In this document: positions 3,904 through 58,368 of the stretch, piece by piece
How the letters are laid out: the number at the start of each line of letters is the position of its first letter
How positions within the stretch are numbered: the stretch's first letter is position 1
NCBI GenBank assembly: GCA_020850355.1
Contig: JADZEX010000091.1
Location: forward strand, 35,755-99,754
From: Fimbriimonadaceae bacterium
GTDB lineage: Bacteria; Armatimonadota; UBA10988
Direction of reading: 5' to 3'
DNA length: 64,000 nucleotides
The notes under the pieces: generated by a model
Seen by the model: only the letters and a program-made list of their open reading frames with translations
Databases searched by the model: none
What the model was told of the DNA's origin: nothing
Translations under genes and position numbers: made by a program

Positions 3904-4014
3904 GTTTCACGTGAAACAGGCCGGGCCGACCATCACGGCGCGAGGCGGTTTCACGTGAAACAGGCCGGACCAGCCGCCACGGCGCGACGGCCGGGGTGGT
4001 GTTTCACGTGAAAC
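3904..4014. repeat. array of 3 palindromic repeats (core GTTTCACGTGAAAC) at 3904, 3948, 4001
   Basis: Seen in sequence; spacing 44 and 53 bp; first two units share extended similarity (..AGGCCGGnCC..CACGGCGCGA..). Confidence 0.9.
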
Positions 4015-4048
4015 GGCCACCTGCCATCGCGCAGGGAGGCGGTCGGGC

Positions 4049-5566
4049 GTGTCGAACCCGGCGGCCATGGGCAAGGTGTCCGAGCAACCCGTCCCCGTCG
4101 CGCCGCGCCGCGGCTGGCTCGTCGCGGCACTCCTGATGCACTTCAGTCTGGGCGGCTACTACCTGGCCCGCCTGCCGCTGTGGGGTGCGGTACCGGACGA
4201 GCCGTTGCATTACAGCACCATCAAGTACGACGCCGAGTTCTTGCGGCAGCCGGTGATCACCAACCCTCGCCCTTGGGCCGAGCCCCTGGCGGTCTACTGC
4301 TTCACCGCCGACCCCGTTGGCGCCGGTGGCCACGGGCCGCTCTACTACTGGACCTGCGTGCCGGTCTTCTGGTTGACCCGCGGGCTGACCGTCGCCGCCC
4401 AGCAGCTGGTGCTGCGCGGCTGGACGTTGTTGCTGAGCAGTCTGCTGCTCTGGTTCGCCTGGCGCGGGCTGCAGCTCGCCTGTCGCGACGACCTGCGTCC
4501 GGTCGGCCCGGCGCTCCTGGTGATCGCGTGTTGGCCGCACCGCTTGATGCTCAGCGCGGTGATTTACAACGACATCGCCGTCGCGACGATGGGGGCGCTC
4601 GCGGTCTGGCTGCTCTGGCGCGCTGCGCCGCTGGCTGGCCGGCGGCCCTGGCTGCTGGCCGGCGCGGCCTTCGGGCTGGCGTTCTTGGGCAAACGCAGCG
4701 GGCTCGTCTTGCTGCCGGGTTGTCTGCTGCTGCCCTGGCTCTGGCCCCGCCAGGAAGGCCGGCGCTGGCGGGCGGCGTGCCGCCAGAACGGTGCCTGGCT
4801 GCTGGGTGCCGCGCTGGTCGGCGGCTGGTGGCTGTGGCGCGACCTGTGGATCTACGGGCGGCTGTTTCCCACCGAGCCGGGGTTTGAGGAGCACTACACC
4901 AACGCGCTGTGGCTCTGGTTCGCACATCCGGAGATCTTCTGGTTCAAGGTCCGTCTGGCGCTCCCGGGCCTCTGGCTGAGCCTCTGGAGCCAGGTCGGCT
5001 GGGTGCCGCTGGACGTCGCCGCGTGGCGTCCCATCGCGCTGGCCCTGTACGGCAGCCTGGCGGTCGCCAGCGGCCTGACCGTGGTCGGCCTGGTCGGAGC
5101 CTGTTGCAGCCGCCGTCGCCGCTTGACGGGCGAGCCGCGCGCACTGCTCGGCAGCGCGGCGGTGATGGTGCTCGGCATGGTCTACGGGGCGCTGCACTGG
5201 GTGGTGCAGTACAGCCTGCACAACCACCAGGAGACCGGCAAGCACGCCCTGGTGGTGCTGCTGCCGCTGCTGCTGCTGGTCGTCACCGCCGGCCGCTGGC
5301 TGGCCGGCCCCGACCGCGTGGCGCCCCTCCTGGTGGCGCTGGCCGTGCTCCTGCTCAGCTTCAACGTCGCCAGCATCGTGCGGCTCGAGGGCTACCTCAT
5401 TCCGACCTGGCGCCCCCCGACGCCAAACCTCGCGGGCGAACGGGTCCGCGACCTGCCGTCCGGGGTGGCGCCGGGCATCTGGCACCGTTACCGCGTGCCG
5501 GGGACCATTCAACGCGGCGGTGCGGTGCCGCCGCCGCCGGCACCGGGGGAGGGTTGGCATGGCTGA
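4049..5566 (+). CDS. polytopic membrane protein, GT-C-type glycosyltransferase candidate (ArnT/PMT-like)
   Basis: Track ORF; many hydrophobic segments, Trp-rich, N-terminal loop with DEP motif; GGGAGG upstream. Confidence 0.45.
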   Translation: MSNPAAMGKVSEQPVPVAPRRGWLVAALLMHFSLGGYYLARLPLWGAVPDEPLHYSTIKYDAEFLRQPVITNPRPWAEPLAVYCFTADPVGAGGHGPLYYWTCVPVFWLTRGLTVAAQQLVLRGWTLLLSSLLLWFAWRGLQLACRDDLRPVGPALLVIACWPHRLMLSAVIYNDIAVATMGALAVWLLWRAAPLAGRRPWLLAGAAFGLAFLGKRSGLVLLPGCLLLPWLWPRQEGRRWRAACRQNGAWLLGAALVGGWWLWRDLWIYGRLFPTEPGFEEHYTNALWLWFAHPEIFWFKVRLALPGLWLSLWSQVGWVPLDVAAWRPIALALYGSLAVASGLTVVGLVGACCSRRRRLTGEPRALLGSAAVMVLGMVYGALHWVVQYSLHNHQETGKHALVVLLPLLLLVVTAGRWLAGPDRVAPLLVALAVLLLSFNVASIVRLEGYLIPTWRPPTPNLAGERVRDLPSGVAPGIWHRYRVPGTIQRGGAVPPPPAPGEGWHG

Positions 5567-7046: not shown

Positions 7047-7112
7047 CCAGCCGTCGGCTCGTGCTAACATGAACCTCACGGAACCGCTGCGGCGGTTCTT
7101 GGAGCAACGGAC

Positions 7113-8420
7113 GTGCGCCAGGTTGTCGCTGCGTTGGTAGGTGGGCTGCTGGTGGCGGGGGCGAGCTGCTCGGCGGCTGCGCCGAAGAACATCATCATGC
7201 TGATCGGCGATGGTTGCGGCCAGCACCACTTCGCCGCCGGTTCGATCTACCGCTTTGGCGCTCCGGGCCGGGCGGCCCACGACCGCTTCCCAGTCAAGCT
7301 GTTCGCCTCCACCTACTCGTCCGAGAGCGGTGGCTACGATCCGGCGACGGTCTGGACCTCGCTGGCCGCGATGCAGGCCAAACCGACCGACTCCGCCGCC
7401 GCCGCCACCGCGCTGGCGACGGGCGTCAAGACCTACAACGCCGCCATCGGTGTCGGTCCGGACAAGCAGCCGCTGCCGAACATCGTCGAACGCGCCGAAG
7501 CCCGCGGCAAGGCCACGGGGGTGGTCAGCACGGTGCCCCTCTCGCACGCCACGCCAGCCGGCTTCGTGGCCCACCAGCCGAGTCGCAGTTCGTATGCGGC
7601 GATCGCCAGCGAGATGATCCTGCGGAGCGCCGTGGACGTGATCATCGGCGGCGGCCATCCGGACTTCGACGCCGCCGGCCGACCCGCGGCGAAGGCCGAC
7701 CCGAACTACGTCGGCGGGGCTGAGACCTGGGCCCAGGTCCAAGCTGGCCGGGCTGGCGCCGATGCCGACCGCGACGGCCGGCCGGATCCCTTCACGCTGG
7801 TCACTGCCCGCTCGGCCGTCGTCAAGTTGGCCAGCGGCCGCACGCCGCGCCGCCTTCTGGTGGTACCACCGGTGCGAGAGTCCTGGCAGGCCGGTCGGCC
7901 GCAGGGCAAGCCGCGCCGGCCGTTCGATGACCCGCTCCTGGCCGCCGTCCCGACCCTCGCCGAAGCCACCGCCGCGGCGCTCAATGTGCTCGACGACGAC
8001 CCCGACGGCCTGTTCCTGATGGTGGAGGGCGGCGCCATCGACTGGGCCTCGCACAACAACGACGCCATCCGCATGGTCGAGGAAGTGATCGACTTCCAGC
8101 AGGCCATCGAGCAGGTGATCGCCTGGGTCGAACAGCGCAGCTCGTGGGAAGAGACGCTGGTGATCGTCACCGCCGACCACGAGACCGGCTGCCTGACCGC
8201 CCCCGATGGCCAGTTGGCGACGGCCCTGCGCGGCCACCGCGGCGAGCTGCCGGCGCTGCTCTGGAACAGCAAGGGCCACACCAACAGCCTGGTCCCGGTC
8301 TATGCCCGCGGCGCCGGCAGCGAGCGGCTGACCGCCGCGGCGACCCGCCGCGATCCGGTGCGGGGCGCCTACCTCGACAACACCGACCTCGCCAAGGCGA
8401 TGTTCGCCGCCTGGCGCTGA
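7113..8420 (+). CDS. alkaline phosphatase (PhoA family), secreted
   Basis: Track ORF; signal peptide; motifs DSAAAATALATGVKTYN and ADHETG typical of PhoA-type alkaline phosphatases. Confidence 0.8.
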   Translation: MRQVVAALVGGLLVAGASCSAAAPKNIIMLIGDGCGQHHFAAGSIYRFGAPGRAAHDRFPVKLFASTYSSESGGYDPATVWTSLAAMQAKPTDSAAAATALATGVKTYNAAIGVGPDKQPLPNIVERAEARGKATGVVSTVPLSHATPAGFVAHQPSRSSYAAIASEMILRSAVDVIIGGGHPDFDAAGRPAAKADPNYVGGAETWAQVQAGRAGADADRDGRPDPFTLVTARSAVVKLASGRTPRRLLVVPPVRESWQAGRPQGKPRRPFDDPLLAAVPTLAEATAAALNVLDDDPDGLFLMVEGGAIDWASHNNDAIRMVEEVIDFQQAIEQVIAWVEQRSSWEETLVIVTADHETGCLTAPDGQLATALRGHRGELPALLWNSKGHTNSLVPVYARGAGSERLTAAATRRDPVRGAYLDNTDLAKAMFAAWR

Positions 8421-8435
8421 GCGGGCGCGCCGGCG

Positions 8436-8544
8436 CTGTTTCACGTGAAACAGCGCTGCACTGGCCCCGCCTGCCCACCTGCTGTTTCACGTGAAACAGC
8501 TCCCGACGGAGCGCGCCACCGACGGTCTGTTTCACGTGAAACAG
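8436..8544. repeat. array of 3 palindromic repeats CTGTTTCACGTGAAACAG at 8436, 8482, 8527
   Basis: Seen in sequence; periodicity 45-46 bp; positions confirmed by CFT-stop/FHVKQ artefact ORFs in the track. Confidence 0.9.
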
Positions 8545-8635
8545 CCGGCCGAGGCGCGGCTTCCCACGGGTCCTGCGGCCGGCAGACTTGACAGCACCGC
8601 CCGCGGCGAGTATCCCTGCCGCGTGGAGTCTGCTG

Positions 8636-9799
8636 ATGCTGGGATGCTGGGCGGTCTTGGCGGTGAGTCTGGCAGCCACCCCGGTGGTGACGGTCCAGGA
8701 CGGCCAGCTCCGGCGCGATGGGCGGCCCTACCGGGCCTTTGGCCTCAACGTCCGCGATCTGGCCGACCGCGTGCTGGACGAAGGTCCGGCCGCGCAGGCC
8801 AGCTTCGACTGCCTGCGCTGGCTGGGCCAGCAGCAGGTCCCTTTCATCCGCTTCTGGGCCTCCTACTTCAACAACCGCGCGAAGTACCTGGCTAACCCGG
8901 CTCAGTACTGGGAGCGGATGGACCTGCTGGTGGCAGCTGCCGAACAGGCCAACGTCGGGCTCCTGCCAACGCTGTTCTGGTGCAACTGGGACGTCCCCTG
9001 GGACCACGGCGAGTCGCGTCTCGACTGGGGCCGCGCCGACTCGCAGACGCGCGCCTTCGCAGCGCGCTACACCCGCGAGTTCATCGAGCGCTACCGCGAC
9101 CGGCCGATCGTCTGGATCTACGAGTACGCCAACGAGAGCAACCTGGCCTGGGACTTGCCGAACTGGCAGCAGTTCCTGCCCGCAGAGCGCCGGATCGACG
9201 CCAACGCCGCCACCGCCGCGGTCGGCCAGGCGGCGCTGCAGTGGTTTGGCAGCGAGGTGCGGCGGCTGGATCCGCGACGGCCGATCTCGTCCGGCTGCAG
9301 CGCCCCGCGGCCGGCGCAGTGGCACATGGCCACTGCCGCTGAGCGGCAGCACAATCCGTGGACCGTCGACAGCCTCGACGAGCGGGTGATCGCCGCCGGC
9401 TGGACCGCCCCCGACCCGGTCGACCTGCTCAGCGTGCATCACTACGAGCCGCACACCGGCTACGATCCGGCCAAGACGCGCGCCAACGTCGCCGAGCTGA
9501 TGACTGTGGCCCAACGCCTGCGCAAGCCGCTCCTGATCGGCGAGTTTGGGGTGCTCGATGGGCATGGCAAGATCGGCCCCGAGTTCGACACCGCACCCTA
9601 TCAGGCCAACGCTCGCGACCTCTGCGAGGCGATCTACCAGGCCCAGGTGCCGCTGGCGGCCTGGTGGGTCTACGCCGTCGAGCCGTGGGGCTTCTGCATG
9701 GGGGCGCTGAATCCGCAGTATGGCAAGTTCGACGGCATCGCCGCGCTGCTCCGCGAGTACAACGCCAAGATCGCCAGCGACCTGGCCAGGGAGGGCTAG
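8636..9799 (+). CDS. glycoside hydrolase, GH5-like (clan GH-A) secreted
   Basis: ATG at 8636 gives signal peptide MLGCWAVLAVSLAA; candidate acid/base in IYEYANESN and nucleophile in LLIGEFGV. Confidence 0.55.
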   Translation: MLGCWAVLAVSLAATPVVTVQDGQLRRDGRPYRAFGLNVRDLADRVLDEGPAAQASFDCLRWLGQQQVPFIRFWASYFNNRAKYLANPAQYWERMDLLVAAAEQANVGLLPTLFWCNWDVPWDHGESRLDWGRADSQTRAFAARYTREFIERYRDRPIVWIYEYANESNLAWDLPNWQQFLPAERRIDANAATAAVGQAALQWFGSEVRRLDPRRPISSGCSAPRPAQWHMATAAERQHNPWTVDSLDERVIAAGWTAPDPVDLLSVHHYEPHTGYDPAKTRANVAELMTVAQRLRKPLLIGEFGVLDGHGKIGPEFDTAPYQANARDLCEAIYQAQVPLAAWWVYAVEPWGFCMGALNPQYGKFDGIAALLREYNAKIASDLAREG

Positions 9800-13158: not shown

Positions 13159-13389
13159 ATGCAACCACTACGACGTCGCTGGGGGCAGACACTTCCCGAG
13201 TACGCCCTGCTGCTCTGCCTGCTGGCAGTGGCCGCAATCGCCATTCTGGCGGTGCTCGGCCGCAAGAACCGCGACACCTACACCAGCACCAATGACAGCC
13301 TGGTGACCACCAACGCCGATGTCAAGAGCGGCAAAGGTGGTGGTGGCGGTGGTGGCGATGGACCGGCGCCGGTGGGCGGACACTGGTAG
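13159..13389 (+). CDS. Flp/Fap-type pilin-like small protein
   Basis: ATG at 13159 with GAGGAG upstream; short basic leader then G-x4-EY motif (WGQTLPEYALLL) and hydrophobic helix; Gly-rich C-terminus. Confidence 0.45.
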   Translation: MQPLRRRWGQTLPEYALLLCLLAVAAIAILAVLGRKNRDTYTSTNDSLVTTNADVKSGKGGGGGGGDGPAPVGGHW

Positions 13390-15427: not shown

Positions 15428-15850
15428 TCAGCGCAGGTGCTTGCGGAAGCTGTGGCTCATCCGCTCGTAGCCGAGATGCTGCTCGTAGAAGCGGTGCGCG
15501 GCGAGGCGCTGCACGCCCGAAGTGAGGGCGATCTGCTGGCAGCCTGCGCCCCGCCCGAGCTCCTCGACCGCGCCCAGCAGCAGGCGGCCGTAGCCCTGCG
15601 ACCGCGCCGTCGCGGTGGTCACCAGGTCGTACACATAGACGTGCCGGCCGTGGTAGAGGTTGGTCAGAATGACGAACCCCGCGACCGCCACAATCTGCCC
15701 GGCCACCCGTACCACCAGTTGGCGGTAGCCTTCGGCGCGCATCGCCTCCAGGAGCGCCAGGTAGGCACTCAGGTCGAGCTGCGTGCGCAACTCGGCGAGC
15801 ACCGCCCAGGCCTCCTGGAACTCGCTGGCGGTGGTCAACTCCGCGACCAC
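15428..15850 (-). CDS. GNAT-family N-acetyltransferase
   Basis: Motif RSQGYGRLLLGAVEEL; start taken at GTG 15850 because longer starts overlap the upstream gene (alternative TTG at 15871 overlaps its stop). Confidence 0.6.
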   Translation of the reverse strand: MVAELTTASEFQEAWAVLAELRTQLDLSAYLALLEAMRAEGYRQLVVRVAGQIVAVAGFVILTNLYHGRHVYVYDLVTTATARSQGYGRLLLGAVEELGRGAGCQQIALTSGVQRLAAHRFYEQHLGYERMSHSFRKHLR

Positions 15851-15867
15851 CGGCTGGGCCGGGCCGT

Positions 15868-17181
15868 TCAAGGCTGCACCGCCGGCAAGGTCGGCAGGAC
15901 GACCCCGCTGAGGTCGCTCCGGGAGACCGCCGCGATGGCCCGCCACCAGGCCACTTGCGAGGCGGGAGTCCGCTCGCAGTGCGGGCTGAAGACAATCACC
16001 CGACCTGCGCCGTACTGCCCCAACGCGACGGCCGCCCTGGTGTTGGTGCGAGTCTTGTCGGAAACATCGGCACCGTAGGTGGCCAAGGTCCGGAACGGGG
16101 GCAACGCGGCCACGCCGGCCGGCTCCATCGCCAGCGGGCCGCCGTGGTAGGTGGTGTCGTGGCGGCCGGCGCAGCCGAGCACCTGCTCGCCGTCGGCGGT
16201 GAACCGCAACGGCACCACCGCACCGCCGCTGCCGACGGGCATCTTGGCGTTGATCACGCCGAGAAACGACTCGCGGTTGCAGGAGGCCAGGAACGCGCCG
16301 GCGCAGACCCCCACCAGGCCGCCCCCGCCGCGCACGTAGTCACGGACCCGCTGCAGACCGGCCGCGCCAAGGGCCTTGGCCTGCTCGCTGGCCAGGCCGC
16401 CGCCGAAGATCACCGCATCAAACTGCGACAGCGCCCCGGCCTGCAGATCCTCGGGCCCGCACAAGTGCAGCTCCAGCCAGGGCAGGTGGCTCACCGAGCG
16501 GGTCAGCCAGTAAGGGTCCCGGCCGATCGAGCTGCTCGCGCCGGGGCCATCGTAGATCGCGCCAAGGGCCCGCTGGCGGCGCTGGGCCGGGTCGGTCGGC
16601 AGGCACTGCTCCGGGCTGGCCGTCGCGGCCAGCACGCCGAGCCGGGAGAGCAGCCCGTAGACGGCGTGGCGGAACTGCCGGACGCGCCAGTAGATCCGGT
16701 TGTCGGGGTCGCGCGTGGCGGCCGTGGTCACCACCAGCACCGCGGCGCCGCCGGCTGCCGCCCGCAGCCGTTCGCGCTCGCCGGCCGCCAGCGCGCCGAC
16801 CTGCCACCGCCGTTCGGGCTGCGGCACCAGGCGGTTCAGATCGCTCGCCACGTCGCGCAGCAAGGCCTGTTGAGCAGGGTCCGACCCTTCCAGCGTGGCA
16901 CCGCTGGCGGCCGGGATGTGGCTCCGCCACTCGAAGGACTCCCGCAGCACCACCACCAGCGCGGCGGCCGCACTGCCGGCAGCGCGCGGCTGCCACGGGT
17001 CAGGCTGCACTTCCAGCCGCCCACCCGCGCCGGGCCAGGTGGCGATCTGGCGGGCCGCCAGGGCCGCCGCGGGGCCATCGCTTAGCGGGTCGACCAGCAC
17101 CCGCACCAGCGGCGCAGCCGGCAGGGCCGGGCTGAGCAGGCAGCACAACAGGATCGACAGATACTGGCGGTAGCGCCCCAT
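15868..17181 (-). CDS. secreted protein with class I glutamine amidotransferase-like (BPL_N/ThuA-like) domain
   Basis: ATG at 17181 with GGAG upstream; signal peptide MGRYRQYLSILLCCLLSPALPAAP; motif FGGGLASEQAKALGAAGLQRVRDYVRGGGGLVGVCAGAF. Confidence 0.4.
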   Translation of the reverse strand: MGRYRQYLSILLCCLLSPALPAAPLVRVLVDPLSDGPAAALAARQIATWPGAGGRLEVQPDPWQPRAAGSAAAALVVVLRESFEWRSHIPAASGATLEGSDPAQQALLRDVASDLNRLVPQPERRWQVGALAAGERERLRAAAGGAAVLVVTTAATRDPDNRIYWRVRQFRHAVYGLLSRLGVLAATASPEQCLPTDPAQRRQRALGAIYDGPGASSSIGRDPYWLTRSVSHLPWLELHLCGPEDLQAGALSQFDAVIFGGGLASEQAKALGAAGLQRVRDYVRGGGGLVGVCAGAFLASCNRESFLGVINAKMPVGSGGAVVPLRFTADGEQVLGCAGRHDTTYHGGPLAMEPAGVAALPPFRTLATYGADVSDKTRTNTRAAVALGQYGAGRVIVFSPHCERTPASQVAWWRAIAAVSRSDLSGVVLPTLPAVQP

Positions 17182-17338
17182 CCAACAGCTCCGATCGGCG
17201 GTCTGCGATGTGCCCATTGTAGCGCCACTGGCGGCGTCCAGGACCATTGGAGTCCTGCGGCGCTTGCCGCAAGCGGCCTGCAGGTGGCAAACTGTTACAC
17301 AGTGGGGAGGTGCCAGGCTGGTTTTGGGGAGGGCCACG

Positions 17339-19303: not shown

Positions 19304-19427
19304 CTGTTTCACGTGAAACTCGCGCCGGGCCCCGCCGCCCCCGCGCTGTTTCACGTGAAACAGACAGCCGCCGCGATGGCCCGCAGCGATCCAGCAGCCG
19401 GGCTGTCGCCCGTTTCACGTGAAACAG
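19304..19427. repeat. array of 3 palindromic repeats at 19304, 19346, 19412
   Basis: Seen in sequence between the NERD gene and the homocysteine methyltransferase gene. Confidence 0.9.
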
Positions 19428-19472
19428 GCGGTCCGGAGGACAGTGCTATAATCGCCGCTCTGAGGTGATTCG

Positions 19473-30177: not shown

Positions 30178-30308
30178 AGCCCTCAGGGCGCCGCGGCGGG
30201 CAGAACGGGCAGGCCGCGTCACCCCAGGAGCCGAGTATGCTCCCGCCGGGGCCAGGAGTCAACGTGGCAGACGCCTCCCGAACACCGGCCGCAGCAGCTT
30301 GCAGGCCG

Positions 30309-33957: not shown

Positions 33958-34064
33958 CGGGGCAACTCCCAGATTCGGTGGCGCGGCCATTCGCCCGCCG
34001 CGGCCCGCACTCCTGCGGCAGGAACCCGGCCAGCGGTGCCGCAATCCGTCGCACGGAGATCGCC

Positions 34065-43796: not shown

Positions 43797-43834
43797 GCCG
43801 GCTGGACCGTCGCCACGTCAGCGCCCGCCGCGCC

Positions 43835-43850
43835 GTTTCACGTGAAACAG
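43835..43850. repeat. single palindromic repeat GTTTCACGTGAAACAG between convergent genes
   Basis: Seen in sequence. Confidence 0.9.
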
Positions 43851-43857
43851 CCGATGC

Positions 43858-45753
43858 TCAGCCCGCCGGGCCGAAGTCCAGGGTCAGCCGCCGGGCGTCC
43901 TTTTGGATCTGCACCGTGGCGGCCCCGAAGTCGGCGCTCAGGAACGGGCTGTCGAAGGCCTTGGACGGGCGAAAGTCGACCGGCTGGCCGTCCACGCTGG
44001 GGGGCTGGCGCCAGGTGGTGTCGAGGGTGAGCGTGGTTTGGTGCAGGCGGCTGGTGTAGCGCAGCAGGCCGTCCGTCAGGTCCCACGGGTTGCCCACCAC
44101 GCTGGCCTGGAAGGCCGCCAGGTCGGCGCACTGCTCGCGGCGGGCGACCTCCAGGATCACCGGGCTGAACTCGTCGCCGCAGGCCAGCCAGTCGCCGAGG
44201 TCGAGGGCGGCGTCCGCTTCGTGGTGCTGCGCTTGAGAGTCCGGTTCCCAGGTGGTCGGCCCGCGCACCACCCGCACCGCGGCGTAGGCGCGCGGGGCGG
44301 TGACAAAGACCCAGCCGTCGCGCTCGACCCGCGGCAACGCGCGATCGAACCAGACGCGCCAGCCCTTGGCATTGCTCTCGCGGAGCCGTTGGGTCAGCAT
44401 CACGCCGCGGTGGACGACCGACCAGCTGGCGTTGTAGACGCTGCCCTTGGCCGGGCGCAGCGGCTGCGGGAAGATCCGGGCGGTGGGGTGGCCGGCGAAG
44501 ATCACCCCGTCCCAGCGGTTCTGGCTCGAGATGTTGGTCCAGCTTGCGGCGGGCTGTGCCGGCAGCAGACTCGCGCCGAGGAGGTAGTCGGGCGTGACGT
44601 AGCTGACGCGCCGGAGGCCGGCCGCGGGGTCCAGGGCGTAGACGCCCTGCGGGCTGTGGAACGGGTGGCCCGGTGGGGCGTAGTTCGGCAACGGCGCGTC
44701 GGCCGCGTGGGTCGCGGCCAGGCCGAGGCGGCGGCTGGTCGAGGTGTAGACGCCGCGGCCGGCCGGGTCGAGGGCCAGGTCTACCACCACCGGGTCGGGT
44801 CGCCAGAAGGTCGTGGCGCCGCACCAGTGGCCAGGGTGCTTGCTCTTGGCGGCGCCGAGGCCGAAGTGGTACCAGGGCAGGCCGTCGATGGAGCTGAGGG
44901 CGGTGGAGTTGCGGCCAGGGTAGCAGCGGTGGCGGCTGCCGCCGCGTTGGCCGTCGAACTGCTCGGTTGCCCAGTCGGCCCAGAAGAGGTTCAGGAGTTG
45001 GGCAAACTGCAGCCGCAGCCGCGGATCGGGCGCGAAGTCGGCCAGGTTGTACCAGCCGCCGAGGGTGTACTTGCCATAGTCGGAGTTGCACTCGACCAGC
45101 AACCCACCCGTGGCGCGGTGGCGGGCGAAGCGCAGGAAGTAGGCATCGAAGGCCGCCGCCATCGCCGCCGGGGTGGTGCCGTCGTCGTAGCGCCGGTCGC
45201 GGTAGGCCGGGCTGGCCGCGAACAGGTGGGCGGCGCCCCAGAAGCTGGACCAGGCCTGGGCGTGGTGGTTCTCGCTGCCCCAGACCCAGAGGTCGCGCTC
45301 CGGCAAGGTCATTTCGAGCCGACACCGCGGCGCTGCCCAGGTCCAGAGCAGCTCCAGGATCAGCGCCTCGGCGGTCGGACTGAGACGACCGGCGTAGTGC
45401 GGGCTGTCGCGGCCGAACAGGAAGACGAGCCGTTCCAAGAGGTAGGCGTGCCAGTGGAAGCCGCTCTCGCCGGTGCCGGCCATCGCGGGCAGCAGCTCAG
45501 CGCGGACCGCCTGCAGCCCGGCCTCGGCCTCGGCGGTGCGCTGGTTGAGCCAGTAGGCCGCCAGCGCAAAGCCCTCGTGCCGCCAGGCCCCGCTGCTGGG
45601 ATAGGGACTGGCCAACAGCGCGGTCAAGAGGGCCTGCCGCCGCTCCTGGGCGCCGGCGATCACGCGCTGCACCGCGGCGTCGTCGACCGCCAGGGCCGGT
45701 CCCGCCAGCAGCACCGCCAGCCAACCTACCCGGCGCAGGCATTCGCCAGCCAT
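43858..45753 (-). CDS. hypothetical secreted protein, possible polysaccharide-degrading enzyme
   Basis: ATG at 45753 with GGAGAG upstream; signal peptide MAGECLRRVGWLAVLLAGPALA; no confident family assignment. Confidence 0.45.
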   Translation of the reverse strand: MAGECLRRVGWLAVLLAGPALAVDDAAVQRVIAGAQERRQALLTALLASPYPSSGAWRHEGFALAAYWLNQRTAEAEAGLQAVRAELLPAMAGTGESGFHWHAYLLERLVFLFGRDSPHYAGRLSPTAEALILELLWTWAAPRCRLEMTLPERDLWVWGSENHHAQAWSSFWGAAHLFAASPAYRDRRYDDGTTPAAMAAAFDAYFLRFARHRATGGLLVECNSDYGKYTLGGWYNLADFAPDPRLRLQFAQLLNLFWADWATEQFDGQRGGSRHRCYPGRNSTALSSIDGLPWYHFGLGAAKSKHPGHWCGATTFWRPDPVVVDLALDPAGRGVYTSTSRRLGLAATHAADAPLPNYAPPGHPFHSPQGVYALDPAAGLRRVSYVTPDYLLGASLLPAQPAASWTNISSQNRWDGVIFAGHPTARIFPQPLRPAKGSVYNASWSVVHRGVMLTQRLRESNAKGWRVWFDRALPRVERDGWVFVTAPRAYAAVRVVRGPTTWEPDSQAQHHEADAALDLGDWLACGDEFSPVILEVARREQCADLAAFQASVVGNPWDLTDGLLRYTSRLHQTTLTLDTTWRQPPSVDGQPVDFRPSKAFDSPFLSADFGAATVQIQKDARRLTLDFGPAG

Positions 45754-45827
45754 CGCCGCTCTCCGCGCACCGCGTTCGCGTCCGCCCGGCCAGTCCCTCC
45801 CGGCGGTGCGCGCCGCGCCCGCGCGCG

Positions 45828-45944
45828 GTGTTTCACGTGAAACAGCGGTCCGCGTGGTCGGCCGGCTCGCGATGCTGCGGGGTGTTTCACGTGAAACAGT
45901 GCGCCCCACGCCGGCCGCGGTGCCGCGTGTTTCACGTGAAACAG
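45828..45944. repeat. array of 3 palindromic repeats GTGTTTCACGTGAAACAG at 45828, 45882, 45927
   Basis: Seen in sequence in divergent intergenic region. Confidence 0.9.
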
Positions 45945-51673: not shown

Positions 51674-51769
51674 TTCGGACAACCGCCTAAGTCGTCCGCA
51701 AGATGAGTGGTGAGCCGATCCATGCGGCTACCGGGAGCGCGCGCCTCCCGGATTGGGAGGTCTCCGGCG

Positions 51770-53962
51770 ATGCGTTCGGTCCGCGCCACAACCTGGGCAG
51801 TGCTGGCGGTGCTCGCGGCCGGAGTCCGGGTCCACGGCCAGGGCGCCAGTCGGCCGGTCTACTTCGTGCGCGACGTCGCGCCGATCTTCGACCGCGAGTC
51901 GTGCAGCTCGTCGCCCTGCCACGGCAAGTTCGGCGGCGGCCAGGGCCGGCTGCAGCTCTCCCTGATGACGCTCTCCCCGGAGGCCGACTTCGCTGGGCTG
52001 GAGCCGCTGATCGATCTCCAGAACCCCGCCAACAGCGTGCTGTTGCAGAAGCCCAGCGGCAAGTCGCCACACGCTGGTGGGCGGCGCTTCCGGGAGAATG
52101 CCAAGGAGTACCAGACGATTCTGCGCTGGATCCAGGAAGGCTGCCGCAACCCGACTCGCGAGCCGCTGCCGGTGCGGCTGCGGGTGACTCCGGAGCGCTT
52201 CAACTTCACGCCCGACAAGAACCAGGGCCGGATTCAGGTCACCGCCGAGTTCGCCGATGGGTCGGCCGAGGACGTCACGGACCGCACCCGGTTCATCAGC
52301 CCGGACGAGGAACAGGTCGAAGTGACTCCGGCGGGCTACGTCACGATGCAGCGCTGGGGCCTGACCAACGTCGTCTGCCGCTACGTTGGGCTGACCAAGG
52401 CGGTGTTCATCTCGCTGCCGCGCCCCAAGACCGCTGCCGACCCGGCCCCGCCGAAGGTGGCCGCGGGCAACCTGGTCGACGCGCTGGTCCACAAGAACCT
52501 CGAGTGGCTGAACATCAACCCGGCTCCGCGCTGCGACGACTACACCTTCCTGCGGCGGATCTACCTTGACCTGGTCGGGGCCCTGCCCGATCCGGCGACG
52601 ATTCGGGCGTTTGTGAAGGACCCCGATCCGAGCAAGCGGGCGAAGCTGGTGGACCAGTTGCTGGACGACCCGCGGTTCGTCGCGATGCGCACGCTGCGGC
52701 TCGGGGACATGCTGCGGATCAACCCGCGCAAGCTGGCCAATGGTCCGTTGCAGGCCCGCGCGGCGATGATCTTCGACGACTGGCTGCGCCGCAGCGTGCG
52801 CGACAACAAGCCGTTCAACAAGCTGACCCACGAGCTGGTCAACGCCCGCGGCTCGACGATGCTCAACGGCCCGGCCAACTTCTACCGCGTCGAGCGCTCG
52901 CCAGAGAACCGCGCCGAGACGATCGGGCAGGCTTTTCTGGGCGTGCGCCTGAGCTGCGCACGCTGCCATAACCATCCCTTCGACCGCTGGAACACCGACG
53001 ACTACTGGGAGTTCGCGGCGTTTCTGGCAAAGATCCGCGAGCGCGGCGCCGAGCTGTTTGACGACCGCGAGCTGTACGTCGACAACAAGGCCCAGCTTCG
53101 CAACCAGGCGGTGACCAGCAAGAAGAAGGGCCAGGTGGCGGTGCCGACCTTCCTCGGCGGACCGAGCCTGCCGCAGGAGCAGTTCCAGGGCGACTACCTG
53201 CAGGCGCTGGCCGACTGGATCACCAACGACGACAACCCGTACTACGGCAAGGCCACCGTGAACCGCGTCTGGTCGCACTTCCTGGGCCGCGGGGTGGTGA
53301 CGCCGGTCGACGACATTCGCGAGACCAGCGTCGCCGCGGTGCCGGCGTTGTTGACGCTGTTGGCGCAGGAGTTCCGCCGCACCGGCTACGACACGAAGCA
53401 GTTGATCCGCCTGATCGTGACCAGCGAGACCTACCAGCGGTCCAGCAGCAGCGACACCACCAACGAGCTGGACAACCGCTTCTTCAGCCACTTCCAGCCG
53501 AAGCAGATGCTGGCGCAAGTGTTGCTGGACGCCATCAACACGGCCTGCGGCACCTGGGACCAGTACGCCAGCTTCCCACGAGGGACCACCGCGGTGGAGC
53601 TGCCGCTGATGGTCAACAACGACTTCCTGGACCGCTTCGGACGCAGCAACCGGGAGTTTCTGGCGACGCTCGACCCGCACGCCGAGCCGACCATGCCGCA
53701 GACGCTGCATCTGATCAACTCCGGGTACATCAACGGCAAGATCACCTCGCGCGAGGGAACCGTGGCGACCCTCGAACCGCAGCTTCGGGACGACCGCGTG
53801 CTGGTCGAAGAGCTCTACCTGCGGACCCTCTGCCGCCCGCCGAGCGCTGGCGAGCTGGAGCAGGTCCTGGGATACCTTAAGAAGATCCCAAACCGCCGCG
53901 AGGCGTTCGAGGATCTCCTGTGGGCGCTGATCAGCTCGCGGGAGTTTGTGTTCATCAGTTAG
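51770..53962 (+). CDS. DUF1549/DUF1553 domain protein (Planctomycete PSD1-type), secreted
   Basis: ATG at 51770 after GGGAGG; signal peptide; motif SCARCHNHPFDRW typical of DUF1549; N-terminal Cys-rich segment. Confidence 0.7.
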   Translation: MRSVRATTWAVLAVLAAGVRVHGQGASRPVYFVRDVAPIFDRESCSSSPCHGKFGGGQGRLQLSLMTLSPEADFAGLEPLIDLQNPANSVLLQKPSGKSPHAGGRRFRENAKEYQTILRWIQEGCRNPTREPLPVRLRVTPERFNFTPDKNQGRIQVTAEFADGSAEDVTDRTRFISPDEEQVEVTPAGYVTMQRWGLTNVVCRYVGLTKAVFISLPRPKTAADPAPPKVAAGNLVDALVHKNLEWLNINPAPRCDDYTFLRRIYLDLVGALPDPATIRAFVKDPDPSKRAKLVDQLLDDPRFVAMRTLRLGDMLRINPRKLANGPLQARAAMIFDDWLRRSVRDNKPFNKLTHELVNARGSTMLNGPANFYRVERSPENRAETIGQAFLGVRLSCARCHNHPFDRWNTDDYWEFAAFLAKIRERGAELFDDRELYVDNKAQLRNQAVTSKKKGQVAVPTFLGGPSLPQEQFQGDYLQALADWITNDDNPYYGKATVNRVWSHFLGRGVVTPVDDIRETSVAAVPALLTLLAQEFRRTGYDTKQLIRLIVTSETYQRSSSSDTTNELDNRFFSHFQPKQMLAQVLLDAINTACGTWDQYASFPRGTTAVELPLMVNNDFLDRFGRSNREFLATLDPHAEPTMPQTLHLINSGYINGKITSREGTVATLEPQLRDDRVLVEELYLRTLCRPPSAGELEQVLGYLKKIPNRREAFEDLLWALISSREFVFIS

Positions 53963-53984
53963 GCCCGACCAAGGGAGCCCCACA

Positions 53985-55334
53985 ATGCCCATCGACGAGA
54001 CCGGGATCCATACCGACTACTGCGACGGCCACGCCCGGCGCGATGTGCTGAAGGCTGGCGTGCTGGGGATGTTCGGCCTCAGCCTGAGCGGCTTCCTGCA
54101 GGCCCAGGCGGCGCAGGCCCAGACCGCTGCGGCGGGCGAGGCCGCGGCTGCCACCGCGCCGCGCGGCAAAGCCGACGCCTGCATCTTGCTGTTCCTGGCC
54201 GGCGGCCCGTCGCACCTCGATAGCTGGGACCCCAAGCCGAGCGCGCCCGAGGAAGTGCGCGGCAGCTTCAAGACCGTCGCCACGAAGCTGCCGGGGGTGC
54301 AGTTTGGGGAGCACATGACGCGCTGCGCGCAGATCGCCGGGGACCTCACGGTGATCCGCTCGATGACCTCGAAGGAGGCCGACCACGAGCGCGGGACGCA
54401 CTACCTGATGACCGGCTATCCGCCGCTCCCCGGCTTCGGGGTGCCGGCGGTGGGCAGTGTCGTCTCGAAGCTGCTGCCGTCCCGCAGCGTGCTGCCGCCG
54501 TACATCGCGGTGCCCAGCCCGGTGCAGTACGGCGGCGCTGGCTTCCTGGGCGCCGCGCTGGACCCCTTCAGCCCTGGCGGCGACCCCAGCAATCCGGGCT
54601 TCCGGGTGCGCGACCTGGCGCCCGAAGGCGGGCTGAGCATCGAACGGGTGGACCGCCGACAGTCCTTGCGGCAGGCGGTTGATGCCAGCTTCGCGCGGCA
54701 CGAGAAGTCGTCCGACGCGGCGCGAGCGGTCGATGAGTTCTACAAGTCGGCCTACGGGCTGATTTCCTCCAGCGAGGCCCGTGCAGCCTTCGACGTCGCC
54801 AAAGAGCCAGACGCCATGAAGGACCTCTATGGGCGCAACAGCCTGGGGCAGTCGTGCCTCCTGGCGCGCCGCCTGGTGCAGGCGGGGGTGCGCTTCGTGA
54901 CGGTCCAGAACGGCGGCTGGGACACCCACAACAACGGCTTCCAGGCGCTTGCCGGCAAGCTGCCGCCGCTCGACCAGGCGGTCGCGGCGCTGGTCACCGA
55001 TCTGAAGCAGCAGGGCATGTTGGAGCGGACGATGGTGCTGGTGATGGGCGAGTTCGGGCGCACCCCGCGGGTCAACCCGCAGGGCGGCCGCGACCACTAC
55101 CCGCAGTGCTTCAGCGTGGTGGCGGCCGGCGGTGGCTGGCAGCGCGGGGCGGTGGTCGGCTCGTCCGACGCGACCGGCGCCAATGTTGCCGAGCGCGGCG
55201 TCAAGCCGGAGGACCTCACGGCGACCGTCTACACGCTGCTGGGAATCGATCCCGACAGCGACCTCCACTCGCCCGAGGGCATCCGAATCGTGCTCAGCCG
55301 CGGCGGCGTCGCCGTGCGGGAGGCGCTGGCGTGA
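53985..55334 (+). CDS. DUF1501 domain protein (sulfatase-like fold, Tat signal; PSD2-type)
   Basis: ATG at 53985 after AGGGAG; twin-arginine-like RRDVLKAGVLG; DUF1501-like motifs (DSWDPK, TVQNGGWDTH). Confidence 0.75.
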   Translation: MPIDETGIHTDYCDGHARRDVLKAGVLGMFGLSLSGFLQAQAAQAQTAAAGEAAAATAPRGKADACILLFLAGGPSHLDSWDPKPSAPEEVRGSFKTVATKLPGVQFGEHMTRCAQIAGDLTVIRSMTSKEADHERGTHYLMTGYPPLPGFGVPAVGSVVSKLLPSRSVLPPYIAVPSPVQYGGAGFLGAALDPFSPGGDPSNPGFRVRDLAPEGGLSIERVDRRQSLRQAVDASFARHEKSSDAARAVDEFYKSAYGLISSSEARAAFDVAKEPDAMKDLYGRNSLGQSCLLARRLVQAGVRFVTVQNGGWDTHNNGFQALAGKLPPLDQAVAALVTDLKQQGMLERTMVLVMGEFGRTPRVNPQGGRDHYPQCFSVVAAGGGWQRGAVVGSSDATGANVAERGVKPEDLTATVYTLLGIDPDSDLHSPEGIRIVLSRGGVAVREALA

Positions 55335-58219
55335 ACCGCTCACGGCGGAGCTGGCTGTGGCTCGTGCTGCTCTCGTCGGCGGCCCTGGCGCAGGGCCCGC
55401 CGCGGCTGCAGGCGGTCTTCCCGGCCGGCGGCCGGGCCGGCAGCACCGTCGACGTGGTCCTGCGCGGGGGCCTCTCGGGTGCCTCGCAGATGTTCATCTA
55501 CGGCGAGGGCGTGAGCGGCGAGCTGCAACGGCGCGAAGGCGCCAGCGATGCCAACGGCCGGCGGCTGTTCAACCAGAAGTGCGCCACCTGCCACGAGTTG
55601 CGCTCGCCGGCCAACCGCCAGATGGCGCCGCCGCAGTGGGAGGCGACGGTCGACCGGATGATCAACCAGCGCGGCGCCGACATCAACGCCGCCGACCGCA
55701 AGTTGATCGTGGACTTCCTGCGCGCCGAGGCCGCGGCCGGCGTGGTGCTCGGCAAGGTGACCATCGCCGCCGATGCCAAACCGGGCCTGCGCGAGATTCG
55801 CGTGCTCACCGCGGCGGGTGTCTCGACAGCCTTCCCGTTCTACGTCTCGGGGCTCCCCGAGACCGTCGAGCAGGAGCCGAACGACACGCTCGAGCAGGCC
55901 CGCGAGCTGAGCCTGCCGGCGGTGGTCAACGGCTGCTGCGAGCGGCCGGGCGACCGCGACTACGTCCGCTTCAGCGCCAGGCGTGGCCAACGGCTGCTGC
56001 TGCGCGCGACGGCCTACCGCCTCAACCAGGACTCCCAGAGCTACTTCTCGGCCTGCCTCTACCTGTACAACGCCGCCAAGCAGGAGATCGCCGCCAACCT
56101 GGGTTTCGAGGACCTCGACCCGTTGATCGACTTCACCGTGCCCGACGACGGGGTGTACACCCTGGAGTGCCGCGACCTGCTGTACCGCGGCGGCGCCGCC
56201 AATGTCTACCGGCTGGAAGTCGGCGAGCTGGGCTACCGGCAGAGCATCTATCCGCTCGGCGGTCAACGCGGTGCGGCGCTGCAGGCGCTGGTGACCAGCG
56301 AGAACCAGCCCCACCGCGAGTGGCAGACCACCCTGGCGGCCGACCAGCCGCTCGGGCTGCAGGAGTTCGACACGCCGTTCGGCCTCTTTCGTTTCCACGT
56401 CAGCGCCTACCCCGACATCTTGGACAGCGGTGAGAGTAAGCCGCAGAACGTGCGGCTGCCGTGCGTGATCAACGGCTGGCTGGGCCGGCCGGGTGAGGCC
56501 GACCGGTACGTGCTGAGCGTGCCGGACAGCGAGCCGCAGGTGGTGCGACGCTGGATGGTGGTCGGGCCGTTCGACGGGCAGGACATCGGCGGCCTGGAGC
56601 GCGCGTTTGACCCCGAGCGCGAAATCCTCGGTGGCCGCTTCGACCCGGCGCGGCAGTTCAGCGCCAAGGGCGGGCAGGAGGGTTGGGAGGCCAAGGACGC
56701 CGACGCCACGACCGGCGTGGTCGGCCTGCCGGCGGGCACCAACGAGGTCTGGTACGGCCTCTACTCGTTCGAGTCCCGGCAAGAGGCCTACGGCCTGCTC
56801 TCGATTGGCAGCGACGATGGCTGCAAGGTCTGGCTGAACGGCAGCGTCGTCCACAGCTTCAAGGGCAACCGGCCGGCGCGGCTGGCGACCGACCTGGTGC
56901 CAGTGCGGTTCCGCCGCGGGCCGAACATCGTACTGCTGAAGGTCTTCAACGCCTCGGGGCCGGGTGGCCTGGGCCTGGCCTCGGGCGCGCAGAAGATCGA
57001 TGTCTTCGCCCGCCGGCTGGGCTCCCCGCTGAAGCCGGTGCTGAAGCTGGGCTTCGGCACGCGCTGGCTGTTCCAGTCGACCAACGACTACGACTTCCCG
57101 CAGCGACCGGGCGGCGATGTGCGTTGCGACTGGAGCTTTGCGCAGGGCGGCGAGTACGGGCTGCAGCTCGAGGACGCCGACGGCGCGGGTGGTGAGCGGT
57201 ACGCCTACCGCATCGAGATCGGGCCGGCGCAGCCGAGCGCCACGCTAAAGGTCTTTCCGGCCAACCCGAGTCTGCCCCCGGGCGGCGCGGTGCCGCTGGT
57301 GGTCGAACGCAGCAGCCTGAGCGGCTACGCGGGCGACCTGCGGCTGGTCTTCGAAGGTCTCCCGGCGGGCGTGACGGTGGACGACGCGGTGCTGCCGGCC
57401 GATGTCCCGTCGACCGTCGTGGTGCTCCGGGCGGCAGCGGCCGCCAAGCCCGCGGCGACGGCGCTGCGGGTGTACGGTGAGGTGCCCAGCCTGAGCGGAC
57501 CGCAGCGCTTCGAGGCGACGCCGCAGGACTTCTACCGGATTCAGAACAACGCCTTCCCGATCAGCCGGCGCGGCCTGGTGGCCGCCGTGACCGAGGAAGC
57601 GGCCCCCTACACCTTGACCGCCAGCCCGGCCAGTGTGCCGGTCCGACCGGGGCAGAAGGCCGAGCTGACCGTCACGGTGGACCGCCGGCCGGGGTTCAAC
57701 CAGGACATCAACCTGATCCTGATGGGCCTGCCGCCGAATGTCAGCGGCACCTCGACGGTGATCCGCGCCGACCGGCGCAGCGCCACGCTGGAGCTGAACT
57801 TCAGCGGCAACCTCCGCAACAGCGCCTTCGGGCAGTCGCGGGTGGCGGACGCCTATCGCGTGGTGGCGGTCGGACTGAACGGCGGCGACGGCCTCAGCGG
57901 CGGGACGATGTACTGCAGCCAGCCGATTGTCCTGGAGCCCTACGACCCGACCCGCGAGCCGCGCCAGGCCACCCCACCAGCGACCGCTGGTGGCGCCCGA
58001 CCAGCCCCGAATGCAGGCGAAGCGGCCGGCCGGATGCTGCTCGAGCGGCGCTGCGTGGGCTGCCACGCGCTGTACGATCCCGAGGAAACCAAGAAGTCGC
58101 TGGCCGACTGGACCGCCACGGTCGACCGCATGATCCAAAAGGGCGCCCGCGTCTCGAACGCGGAGCGGGACCAGATTCTGACCTACCTCCGGGCGGTGAC
58201 TGCCCGCCAGACACGCTGA
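55331..58219 (+). CDS. large secreted protein with N- and C-terminal c-type cytochrome domains (CxxCH x2) and internal pre-peptidase-C-terminal-like domains
   Basis: GTG start overlapping upstream stop (GTGA); haem-binding motifs CATCHE and CVGCHA; signal peptide WLWLVLLSSAALA. Confidence 0.7.
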   Translation: MNRSRRSWLWLVLLSSAALAQGPPRLQAVFPAGGRAGSTVDVVLRGGLSGASQMFIYGEGVSGELQRREGASDANGRRLFNQKCATCHELRSPANRQMAPPQWEATVDRMINQRGADINAADRKLIVDFLRAEAAAGVVLGKVTIAADAKPGLREIRVLTAAGVSTAFPFYVSGLPETVEQEPNDTLEQARELSLPAVVNGCCERPGDRDYVRFSARRGQRLLLRATAYRLNQDSQSYFSACLYLYNAAKQEIAANLGFEDLDPLIDFTVPDDGVYTLECRDLLYRGGAANVYRLEVGELGYRQSIYPLGGQRGAALQALVTSENQPHREWQTTLAADQPLGLQEFDTPFGLFRFHVSAYPDILDSGESKPQNVRLPCVINGWLGRPGEADRYVLSVPDSEPQVVRRWMVVGPFDGQDIGGLERAFDPEREILGGRFDPARQFSAKGGQEGWEAKDADATTGVVGLPAGTNEVWYGLYSFESRQEAYGLLSIGSDDGCKVWLNGSVVHSFKGNRPARLATDLVPVRFRRGPNIVLLKVFNASGPGGLGLASGAQKIDVFARRLGSPLKPVLKLGFGTRWLFQSTNDYDFPQRPGGDVRCDWSFAQGGEYGLQLEDADGAGGERYAYRIEIGPAQPSATLKVFPANPSLPPGGAVPLVVERSSLSGYAGDLRLVFEGLPAGVTVDDAVLPADVPSTVVVLRAAAAAKPAATALRVYGEVPSLSGPQRFEATPQDFYRIQNNAFPISRRGLVAAVTEEAAPYTLTASPASVPVRPGQKAELTVTVDRRPGFNQDINLILMGLPPNVSGTSTVIRADRRSATLELNFSGNLRNSAFGQSRVADAYRVVAVGLNGGDGLSGGTMYCSQPIVLEPYDPTREPRQATPPATAGGARPAPNAGEAAGRMLLERRCVGCHALYDPEETKKSLADWTATVDRMIQKGARVSNAERDQILTYLRAVTARQTR

Positions 58220-58232
58220 CCACCGCCGCCGG

Positions 58233-58368
58233 CTGTTTCACGTGAAACAGCACCAGACCCCGGCCGCCAAGGTGGCGCTGCCGCGGCGGCGGGGCCAATC
58301 CGGTGAACCCCGGCGCTCCGGGCGCCGTGTTTCACGTGAAACAGCGCGAGGTGTTTCACGTGAAACAG
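58233..58368. repeat. array of 3 palindromic repeats at 58233, 58327, 58351 (last two only 24 bp apart)
   Basis: Seen in sequence between convergent genes. Confidence 0.9.

Follow-up and report, generated by a model that had tools for sequence, protein, structure and literature searches.

Nineteen intergenic palindromes of a Fimbriimonadaceae contig very probably form a multi-site chromosomal parS region

What is one and the same palindrome doing in seven places between the genes of a Fimbriimonadaceae contig? A first-pass annotation of this DNA counted nineteen perfect copies in seven loci and likened them to REP/BIME elements, with an operator array or an mRNA-end element as further options. 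The count has been confirmed. With up to one mismatch allowed, TGTTTCACGTGAAACA has exactly 19 matches in the window (the whole 64-kb stretch of DNA that was analysed) and none in any of 100 dinucleotide-preserving shuffles of it. The locus coordinates given at the time were right to within 1 bp. The matches group into six triplets and one single site, given here with strand, the positions of the 16-mers, centre-to-centre spacings and neighbouring genes.

Putative parS triplet 1: 3903-4015, strand "."; 16-mers 3903-3918, 3947-3962 and 4000-4015; spacings 44/53 bp; stop of ORF 2439-3896 (+) on one side, start of ORF 4049-5566 (+) on the other.
Putative parS triplet 2: 8437-8543, strand "."; 16-mers 8437-8452, 8483-8498 and 8528-8543, 3/3 lying in the perfect 18-mer CTGTTTCACGTGAAACAG; spacings 46/45 bp; alkaline-phosphatase gene 7113-8420 (+) and GH5-like gene 8588-9799 (+).
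Putative parS triplet 3: 19305-19426, strand "."; 16-mers 19305-19320, 19347-19362 and 19411-19426; spacings 42/64 bp; stop of ORF 17210-19252 (+) to the left; to the right the promoter-like element TGCTATAAT and the start of a fused homocysteine S-methyltransferase/MTHFR gene, 19473-21377 (+).
Putative parS triplet 4: 30310-30422, strand "."; 16-mers 30310-30325, 30365-30380 and 30407-30422; spacings 55/42 bp; GH57 gene 28012-30222 (-) and a gene for 1200 aa, 30442-34044 (-).
Putative single parS site: 43834-43849, strand "."; flanked by convergent genes 40170-43796 (+) and 43858-45754 (-), which are 61 bp apart.
Putative parS triplet 5: 45829-45943, strand "."; 16-mers 45829-45844, 45883-45898 and 45928-45943; spacings 54/45 bp; between divergent gene starts inferred from signal-peptide-like N-termini, a probable ATG at 45754 (-) and, for a lipoprotein-like beta-helix protein, an ATG at 45994 (+).
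Putative parS triplet 6: 58234-58367, strand "."; 16-mers 58234-58249, 58328-58343 and 58352-58367; atypical spacings of 94 and 24 bp; between convergent genes 54854-58219 (+) and 58401-59102 (-).

The triplets lie about 2-13 kb apart and span at least 55 kb, which agrees with the earlier statement that the loci divide the window into blocks of that size. Tandem, convergent and divergent gene contexts are all found among the seven loci, as had been described. Six loci do hold three copies, and the spacing of roughly 45 bp attributed to them fits five arrays but not triplet 6. The 12 spacings in the window are periodic at about 10 bp (nR2 = 7.0), as helical phasing would produce. However, 137 spacings from other genomes have no such period (R = 0.04) and no claim is made for it.

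One clue to the nature of the palindrome is where it is found. No copy had been seen inside a CDS, and the gene calls of this analysis likewise place 7/7 loci in intergenic DNA, which makes up 4.1% of the window. The chance that seven independent loci would all be intergenic is about 2e-10. The two largest parS-free gaps in the window proved to be coding. The sequence of the 16-mer may account for this placement. On either strand one of its frames runs into a TGA stop, and the remaining frames would force codons ending in A or T, which are rare in a genome with about 90% G+C at third codon positions.

Another clue is how little the palindrome varies. The 14-bp core GTTTCACGTGAAAC is unchanged in 19/19 copies in the window, where there are no degenerate copies with 2-4 mismatches and no isolated half sites (GTTTCAC heptamers, n = 38, are every one part of the 19 full sites). 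The spacers are another matter. They differ between loci, as had been noted, but the suggestion that they can be related within a locus is true only of triplet 1 (TRF period 44, 76% matches; spacer z = 4.1), where homologous spacers indicate a probable tandem duplication. Spacer alignment finds no homology in the other five triplets, within or between loci. A fixed core amid diverged spacers, with neither decayed copies nor half sites around it, looks like a signature of selection. Two kinds of mobile DNA were also considered and rejected. Terminal inverted repeats of a known IS or MITE, the identity that the first-pass annotation had set against its own proposal, do not match loci whose spacers and flanks are unrelated to one another, homology being limited to the two spacers of triplet 1. 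The idea of a mobile cassette was dropped after alignment of spacers between arrays had returned homology within triplet 1 alone.

So what is conserved here? All 19 copies fit the chromosomal parS consensus tGTTNCACGTGAAACa with at most one mismatch (consensus as given in PMC7022226 and PMC7083940). The parS sites of Mycobacterium, Corynebacterium, Streptomyces and Caulobacter are tabulated as GTTTCACGTGAAAC or TGTTNCACGTGAAACA (PMC7022226), and a full-text literature search with the 14-mer leads almost exclusively to papers on ParB and parS. Very probably the palindromes are 19 chromosomal parS sites that jointly make up one multi-site centromere region, at least 55 kb long, in the chromosome of an uncultured member of the Fimbriimonadaceae. 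parS is an already known and well-understood kind of element that went unrecognised when the palindrome was proposed as a new REP-like family.

The same motif turns up next to parB in other genomes. At least 119 species representatives, drawn from many phyla, have triplets of the identical 14-mer, among them another member of the Armatimonadota (L104). In this set of 119 loci, which was selected on three or more copies per locus, 23/119 have an ORF with the ParB signature GERRxRA no more than about 1-2 kb from the array. The ten such ORFs tested all contain ParB_N and HTH_ParB domains (E = 1e-29 to 1e-37), and 8/10 contain ParB_C. A metagenome scan in which the query was a pair of the lineage-typical 18-mer returned 101 loci with paired sites, and 66/101 have the ParB motif in the same fetched locus. 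By tblastn, none of these 101 loci is kin to the MAG studied here.

These observations weigh heavily on the comparison with REP/BIME elements, the selfish or domesticated intergenic hairpin repeats that a RAYT (TnpA-REP) transposase spreads genome-wide. The resemblance to the REP/BIMEs of Enterobacteria and Pseudomonas is real, in that palindromic copies lie between genes in small clusters and in tandem, convergent and divergent contexts alike. However, REPs are lineage-specific, imperfect, dispersed over the genome, linked to RAYT and not associated with parB, whereas the palindrome in the window is an exact cross-phylum parS consensus and the same arrays adjoin parB genes in many phyla. REP families also contain decayed copies, unlike the window. 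The earlier remark that no RAYT-type transposase is present still holds, with no Y1/RAYT transposase domain in a Pfam scan of 40 ORFs of the window. The nearest available relatives (L120-L126), which were found via the fused metH/metF-type protein (65-71% amino-acid identity), point the same way: about 86 kb of their DNA contains no palindrome at up to 3 mismatches, versus 19 in 55 kb here. Altogether, a REP/BIME family is extremely unlikely. The orthologous neighbourhoods of these relatives have neither synteny nor parS, and triplet 3 is absent upstream of the orthologous gene. Positional conservation is therefore unusable as support for parS.

Could the palindromes act at the RNA level instead, as transcribed hairpins that terminate transcription or stabilise the 3' ends of mRNAs? 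Any one copy can fold into a hairpin with 7 bp in the stem and 4 nt in the loop, several arrays come after the 3' ends of genes, and triplet 2, at a minimum free energy of -76.9 kcal/mol, folds far better than its shuffles (z = -6.6). However, the folding is uninformative because any perfect palindrome folds so. The stem is rich in A/T and not in G+C as in an intrinsic terminator, a T-run follows none of the copies, and 0/9 copies in the 1-20 kb part of the window were called terminator-like. A terminator would also make no sense in triplet 5, between two divergent gene starts. The exact sequence is kept in 19/19 copies and in different phyla, and compensatory variation is absent, which argues for a protein that recognises double-stranded DNA and not for a structure. 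The mRNA-end proposal of the first-pass annotation is not supported, and an RNA-level role in general is vanishingly unlikely. A scan of the window against Rfam gave no family at the gathering threshold.

If a protein reads the DNA, it might be an ordinary dimeric transcription factor with the arrays as its operators, or the parS sites might serve mainly in local transcriptional control. Operators of dimeric helix-turn-helix proteins are typically perfect palindromes of 16-18 bp, and triplets 1, 2, 3 and 5 (45829-45943) are located just upstream of gene starts. There is even a precedent in Pseudomonas aeruginosa, where ParB at the intergenic sites parS3 and parS4 represses the adjacent promoters (PMC7022226). 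However, the single site and triplet 6 lie between convergent gene ends with no promoter to control, the functions of the neighbouring genes are unrelated, and the motif is parS, linked to parB in other genomes. The operator proposal came near the mark: the expected binder is dimeric and has a helix-turn-helix, but ParB is a segregation clamp and no classical repressor. Operators of an ordinary transcription factor, or transcriptional control as the main role of parS here, are very unlikely, although local repression by ParB could occur as a side effect.

What of the rest of the window? The 64 kb include no parA, parB, smc or dnaA among their ORFs, no ParB domain in any ORF, and no match to the DnaA box TTATCCACA with up to one mismatch. 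Because of this lack of TTATCCACA matches, oriC has not been placed in the window, across which the GC skew changes sign only weakly. The housekeeping genes panB, panD, a fused metH/metF-type gene, glgC and grpE are present and imply a chromosomal setting.

That the cognate protein is not seen in the window leaves room for a variation on the parS identity. Perhaps the sites belong to a ParB-family paralogue (Noc-like, KorB-like, or the ParB of a plasmid or chromid) and not to the main chromosomal ParB. Such paralogues recognise similar palindromes of 14-16 bp, and in some metagenome contigs two ORFs with the ParB motif are found around pairs of parS. However, the motif fits parS and not the Noc-binding site, ATTTCCCGGGAAAT. 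To our knowledge Noc is restricted to Firmicutes, another point against a Noc-like protein, and the contig has core housekeeping genes. Use of the sites by a paralogue is extremely improbable.

Multi-site chromosomal parS regions have been described before. Corynebacterium glutamicum has ten identical parS in 35 kb, of which 9/10 are intergenic, and ChIP-seq shows ParB at all of them (Bohm et al., 2020, PMC7083940). The likeness to parS1-10 is close: multiple identical 16-bp sites with the same consensus, clustered within tens of kilobases and mostly intergenic. The C. glutamicum sites, tens of kilobases away from oriC, give rise to several merged spreading zones of ParB (PMC7083940). The window differs in its 19 sites spread across 55 kb or more, versus 10 across 35 kb, in their grouping as six triplets plus a single site, in its phylum, Armatimonadota, and in being known from sequence alone. 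The origin-proximal parS clusters of Myxococcus xanthus (24 parS upstream of parAB; PMC3778016) and Streptomyces coelicolor (21 parS; PMC7022226) also belong to high-GC genomes, with about 20 parS in one region and the same palindrome core. However, the M. xanthus sites are directly upstream of parAB, whereas the window has no parAB within 64 kb, and the M. xanthus EMSA consensus is GTTCCACGTGGAAC versus the invariant core GTTTCACGTGAAAC here.

Tandem sites of this size are also found on a plasmid. In the sopC centromere of the F plasmid, a 43-bp unit is repeated 12 times in tandem, and SopB binds the 16-bp inverted repeat that every unit contains. Its period of about 43 bp is similar to the 42-55 bp seen in the window, and both are tandem palindromic 16-bp sites for the ParB family. 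However, sopC repeats whole units with conserved spacers, and it has another sequence and another ParB (SopB), whereas in the window the palindrome alone is conserved and the arrays are chromosomal. A plasmid centromere of the sopC type was accordingly rejected: spacers are not conserved in 5/6 arrays, and the contig has chromosomal housekeeping genes with no parAB in the window.

How would the 19 putative parS sites work? The steps that follow are established for ParABS systems and are carried over to this genome by inference. Dimers of ParB (Spo0J), presumably the organism's own, would recognise the 16-bp palindrome through a helix-turn-helix domain. ParB on parS would bind CTP, close as a clamp, leave the site and slide to the flanking DNA. 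Loading again and again would create a ParB-coated domain, which ParA-ATP would move so that the origin-proximal region is segregated, and from which SMC condensin would be loaded. The triplet arrangement may bring a functional benefit as well. Grouping sites in threes would multiply the rate of loading at each locus, and with arrays 2-13 kb apart the separate spreading zones might fuse into one large partition complex. In vitro, the force limit for DNA condensation by ParB-CTP grows with the number of parS copies (7 < 13 < 26).

For the most part this is a correction, in which a conspicuous repeat resembling a new REP-like family becomes a standard bacterial centromere. For annotation, the 178-kb contig of the Fimbriimonadaceae MAG can be labelled as the chromosome's partition region, a region that is probably close to the origin. 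It also suggests that the canonical parS/ParB system operates in the Armatimonadota in a multi-site form. We know of almost no cell-biology data for this phylum.

The sole mildly new point is the regular layout, in which triplets follow one another at intervals of about 2-13 kb across 55 kb or more. A keyword literature search found no description of closely spaced parS triplets as a class. Is the tight triplet (sites about 40-60 bp apart) a selected loading module and not an accident of duplication? This is a rather unlikely idea. If true, this Armatimonadota genome would have an unusually large, regularly punctuated 'regional centromere', and its layout would help to explain how the rate of ParB clamp loading and the size of the partition complex depend on how many sites there are and how they are spaced. 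parS triplets leave the understanding of the parS/ParB system unchanged, but they are common across phyla and may merit modest comparative or biophysical work on ParB loading. Exact triplets also occur in widely separated phyla: in Collinsella, where the period is strictly 39 bp, and in Streptomyces, Planctomycetota, Lachnospiraceae and bacteria of the candidate phyla radiation (CPR), with tightly spaced arrays at three of the Streptomyces loci (L012, L014 and L038).

A search of the window with TGTTTCACGTGAAACA, allowing up to two mismatches, returned 19 matches, each with at most one mismatch. The same sequence had no match in 100 dinucleotide-preserving shuffles. The copies lie at seven parS loci:

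3903-4015, three copies (array 1)
8437-8543, three copies (array 2)
19305-19426, three copies (array 3)
30310-30422, three copies (array 4)
43834-43849, one copy
45829-45943, three copies (array 5)
58234-58367, three copies (array 6)

The first-pass annotation had described 19 perfect palindromes at seven loci, six with three copies, and this stands, with its coordinates right to within 1 bp. Exactly three copies at six of seven loci is slightly unusual. The 14-bp core GTTTCACGTGAAAC is unchanged in 19 of 19 copies. The window (G+C about 70%) has neither degenerate copies with 2-4 mismatches nor isolated half sites. All 38 of its GTTTCAC heptamers, where 2.8 are expected, are parts of the 19 full sites.

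One clue to the identity of the palindrome is that, among the matches listed in a full-text literature search with GTTTCACGTGAAAC, nearly all concern ParB and parS. A review table gives the parS of Mycobacterium smegmatis as GTTTCACGTGAAAC, that of Corynebacterium glutamicum as TGTTNCACGTGAAACA, that of Streptomyces coelicolor as tGTTTCACCTGAAACa (as printed) and that of Caulobacter crescentus as t/cGTTt/cCACGTGAAAca (PMC7022226). Because this literature and the table entries agree with the core, the window palindrome can be identified by its sequence as canonical chromosomal parS, where ParB/Spo0J nucleates and is loaded. The first-pass annotation had not recognized it as such. The earlier idea of an operator array for a dimeric regulator holds only loosely, insofar as a dimeric HTH protein does bind such sites; here that protein would be ParB. 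At parS3/4 of P. aeruginosa ParB represses locally (PMC7022226) and, by analogy, local repression near the window sites is a possible side effect.

It is very probable that the 19 sites make up a multi-site parS centromere region of an already known kind. In C. glutamicum a 35-kb cluster, 73 kb away from oriC, comprises ten identical parS sites, nine of them intergenic; ChIP-seq shows ParB at every one, and the spreading zones appear as three merged ones (PMC7083940). There are 24 parS sequences upstream of parAB in M. xanthus (PMC3778016) and 21 parS in S. coelicolor (PMC7022226). The window layout would be a further instance of this multi-parS organization. Published work on ParABS, PMC8299390 included, describes how ParB dimers bind parS and how the bound ParB, on taking up CTP, closes into a clamp, leaves the site and slides along kilobases of DNA; ParA moves the ParB domain so formed, and SMC is loaded from it. 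ParB loading, clamp sliding, ParA transport and SMC loading are established for ParABS and would operate in this genome by extension. The force limit of in vitro DNA condensation by ParB-CTP grows with parS number (7 < 13 < 26; PMC8299390), which offers a rationale for many sites. Since arrays 2-13 kb apart lie within typical ParB spreading distances, the 19 sites would be expected to merge into a single unbroken partition complex spanning 55 kb or more.

Similar arrays occur in other genomes. A scan of GTDB representatives (one genome per species) for three copies of the 14-mer 25-55 bp apart gave at least 119 loci. Among the matches listed, these come from Collinsella, Streptomyces, Amycolatopsis, Lachnospiraceae, Oscillospiraceae, Bacilli, Planctomycetota, Myxococcales, Alpha- and Gammaproteobacteria, Treponema, Bacteroidota, Calditrichia, Paceibacterota and Magasanikbacteria, and from a Chthonomonadaceae MAG which, like the window organism, belongs to Armatimonadota; array size is 3-10 copies. 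In 23 of 119 loci, again among the matches listed, an ORF bearing GERRxRA, the CTP-binding signature of ParB, is found within about 1-2 kb of the array. Ten such ORFs were scanned with Pfam and all have ParB_N and HTH_ParB (E = 1e-29 to 1e-37), with ParB_C also in eight, so these ten are, by domain content, bona fide ParB. In a metagenome scan, two copies of the 18-mer form were found at 101 loci, and 66 of these have a ParB signature on the same, often short, contig piece. By chance, the signature motif would be met at about one of several thousand such loci. This excess argues that, across bacteria, closely spaced arrays of the exact palindrome are centromere sites and are linked to parB.

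These data do not support the REP/BIME interpretation proposed at first. The motif is universal and not lineage-specific, it is linked to parB elsewhere, and decayed copies are absent from the window. Pfam scans of the window ORFs also uphold the earlier statement that no RAYT-type transposase is present there. Fimbriimonadaceae belong to Armatimonadota, and the nearest available relatives were picked by the fused methyltransferase/MTHFR protein (65-71% identity). About 86 kb of their orthologous neighbourhoods holds no parS with up to three mismatches, showing that this lineage does not carry the motif as a general dispersed repeat. The gene neighbourhoods differ from that of the window, so the absence says nothing on positional conservation.

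Genes were called from third-position G+C, ORF lists and Pfam scans. The genome is compact, with 4.1% of the window intergenic, or about 3% when two further small genes are counted:

13159-13389, plus strand, 76-aa hydrophobic Gly-rich protein with a weak sub-threshold YxzE-like match
15428-15946, minus strand, GNAT acetyltransferase

These are the largest apparent gaps without parS, yet both are coding. The six largest true intergenic gaps are those holding the six triplets. All seven parS loci are intergenic (chance about 2e-10 for seven independent loci), in four tandem, two convergent and one divergent contexts, which bears out the earlier description. On either strand, one frame of the 16-mer contains a TGA, and the remaining frames would call for codons ending in A or T, which are rare in a window with about 90% G+C at third codon positions. 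No functional theme links the flanking genes, which include those for alkaline phosphatase, glycoside hydrolases, a fused homocysteine methyltransferase/MTHFR and WD40/BTAD proteins. Could the palindromes instead be terminators or mRNA-end elements? An RNA fold is favourable, yet this is trivial for any palindrome. No T-tails follow the palindromes, none in 1-20 kb was called terminator-like and one array sits between divergent gene starts, so this reading was rejected.

Pfam scans found no ParB, ParA, SMC, DnaA or transposase domains in window ORFs. The absence of parAB from 64 kb despite 19 parS sites is slightly unusual. The DnaA box TTATCCACA (up to one mismatch) is absent from the window, and an Rfam scan of it gave no match. 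GC skew drifts from about -0.02 (1-16 kb) through zero (16-38 kb) to about +0.05 (38-64 kb), beyond what gene orientation alone explains; a nearby replication-strand switch could be the source. G+C rises to 77-79% at 60000-64000, against about 70% elsewhere; this stretch has many long overlapping shadow ORFs and a 1135-aa ORF (60086-63493, minus strand) with only a weak TPR match. DUF1559/SBP_bac_10, PSCyt2 + PSD1 and DUF1501 genes, families usually counted as Planctomycete signatures, occur at 39398-40099 and 51707-55334 in this Fimbriimonadaceae-labelled MAG. An extended -10 element of TGCTATAAT type (19445-19455) precedes the fused homocysteine S-methyltransferase/MTHFR gene by about 20-30 bp, and is kept upstream of the orthologues in two relatives without a parS array (L124, about 600-615; L125, about 920-935).

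How did the arrays arise? In array 1 the two spacers show homology to each other (TRF period 44, 76% matches; local alignment z = 4.1), which fits a recent tandem duplication. Alignment of the remaining spacers found no relatedness within or between loci, and this rules out a single mobile cassette copied to all of them. A MITE or IS origin was likewise rejected, as the loci share nothing except the palindrome. That the core stays invariant while the spacers beside it have diverged freely indicates that the exact 14 bp are under strong purifying selection. This would be expected for a sequence-specific DNA-binding protein, whereas an RNA hairpin would tolerate compensatory changes.

Triplet centre-to-centre spacings are 44/53, 46/45, 42/64, 55/42, 54/45 and 94/24 bp. 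These 12 values hint at phasing of about 10 bp (Rayleigh nR2 = 7.0). In 137 de-duplicated spacings from the other genomes, however, a 10-11 bp periodicity is lacking (R = 0.04) and the sole signal, a weak one, is at 5.5 bp, so phasing is not claimed. The bases just outside the 16-mer (±9) are C on the left and G on the right in 29 of 38 window half sites, giving the 18-bp palindrome CTGTTTCACGTGAAACAG. In 586 half sites of other genomes T..A is preferred (T/A 55%, G 11%). This slightly unusual C..G bias could stem from the G+C-rich surroundings or from a ParB preference particular to the lineage.

Beyond annotating the partition region of an Armatimonadota MAG, and hinting that parS triplets could be compared between genomes, the finding is of low interest. 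Dozens of Collinsella species representatives (within L006-L119) have a triplet at a strict 39-bp period, which suggests maintenance as a unit across the genus. The Chthonomonadaceae contig (L104:4127-4448) ends within an array that has one degenerate and at least five perfect copies, the latter at a 58-bp period; short-read assemblies can break at arrays of this type. In gut metagenome contigs (L143, L150, L151, L160, L166, L168, L182 and similar), two GERRxRA ORFs about 1.8 kb apart, which may be a ParB paralogue pair, surround a parS pair at 37-bp spacing, with a third parS about 2.3 kb off. Keyword searches of the literature available to the analysis found no paper that treats natural tandem parS arrays on chromosomes as a class; by genome scan they are clearly common.
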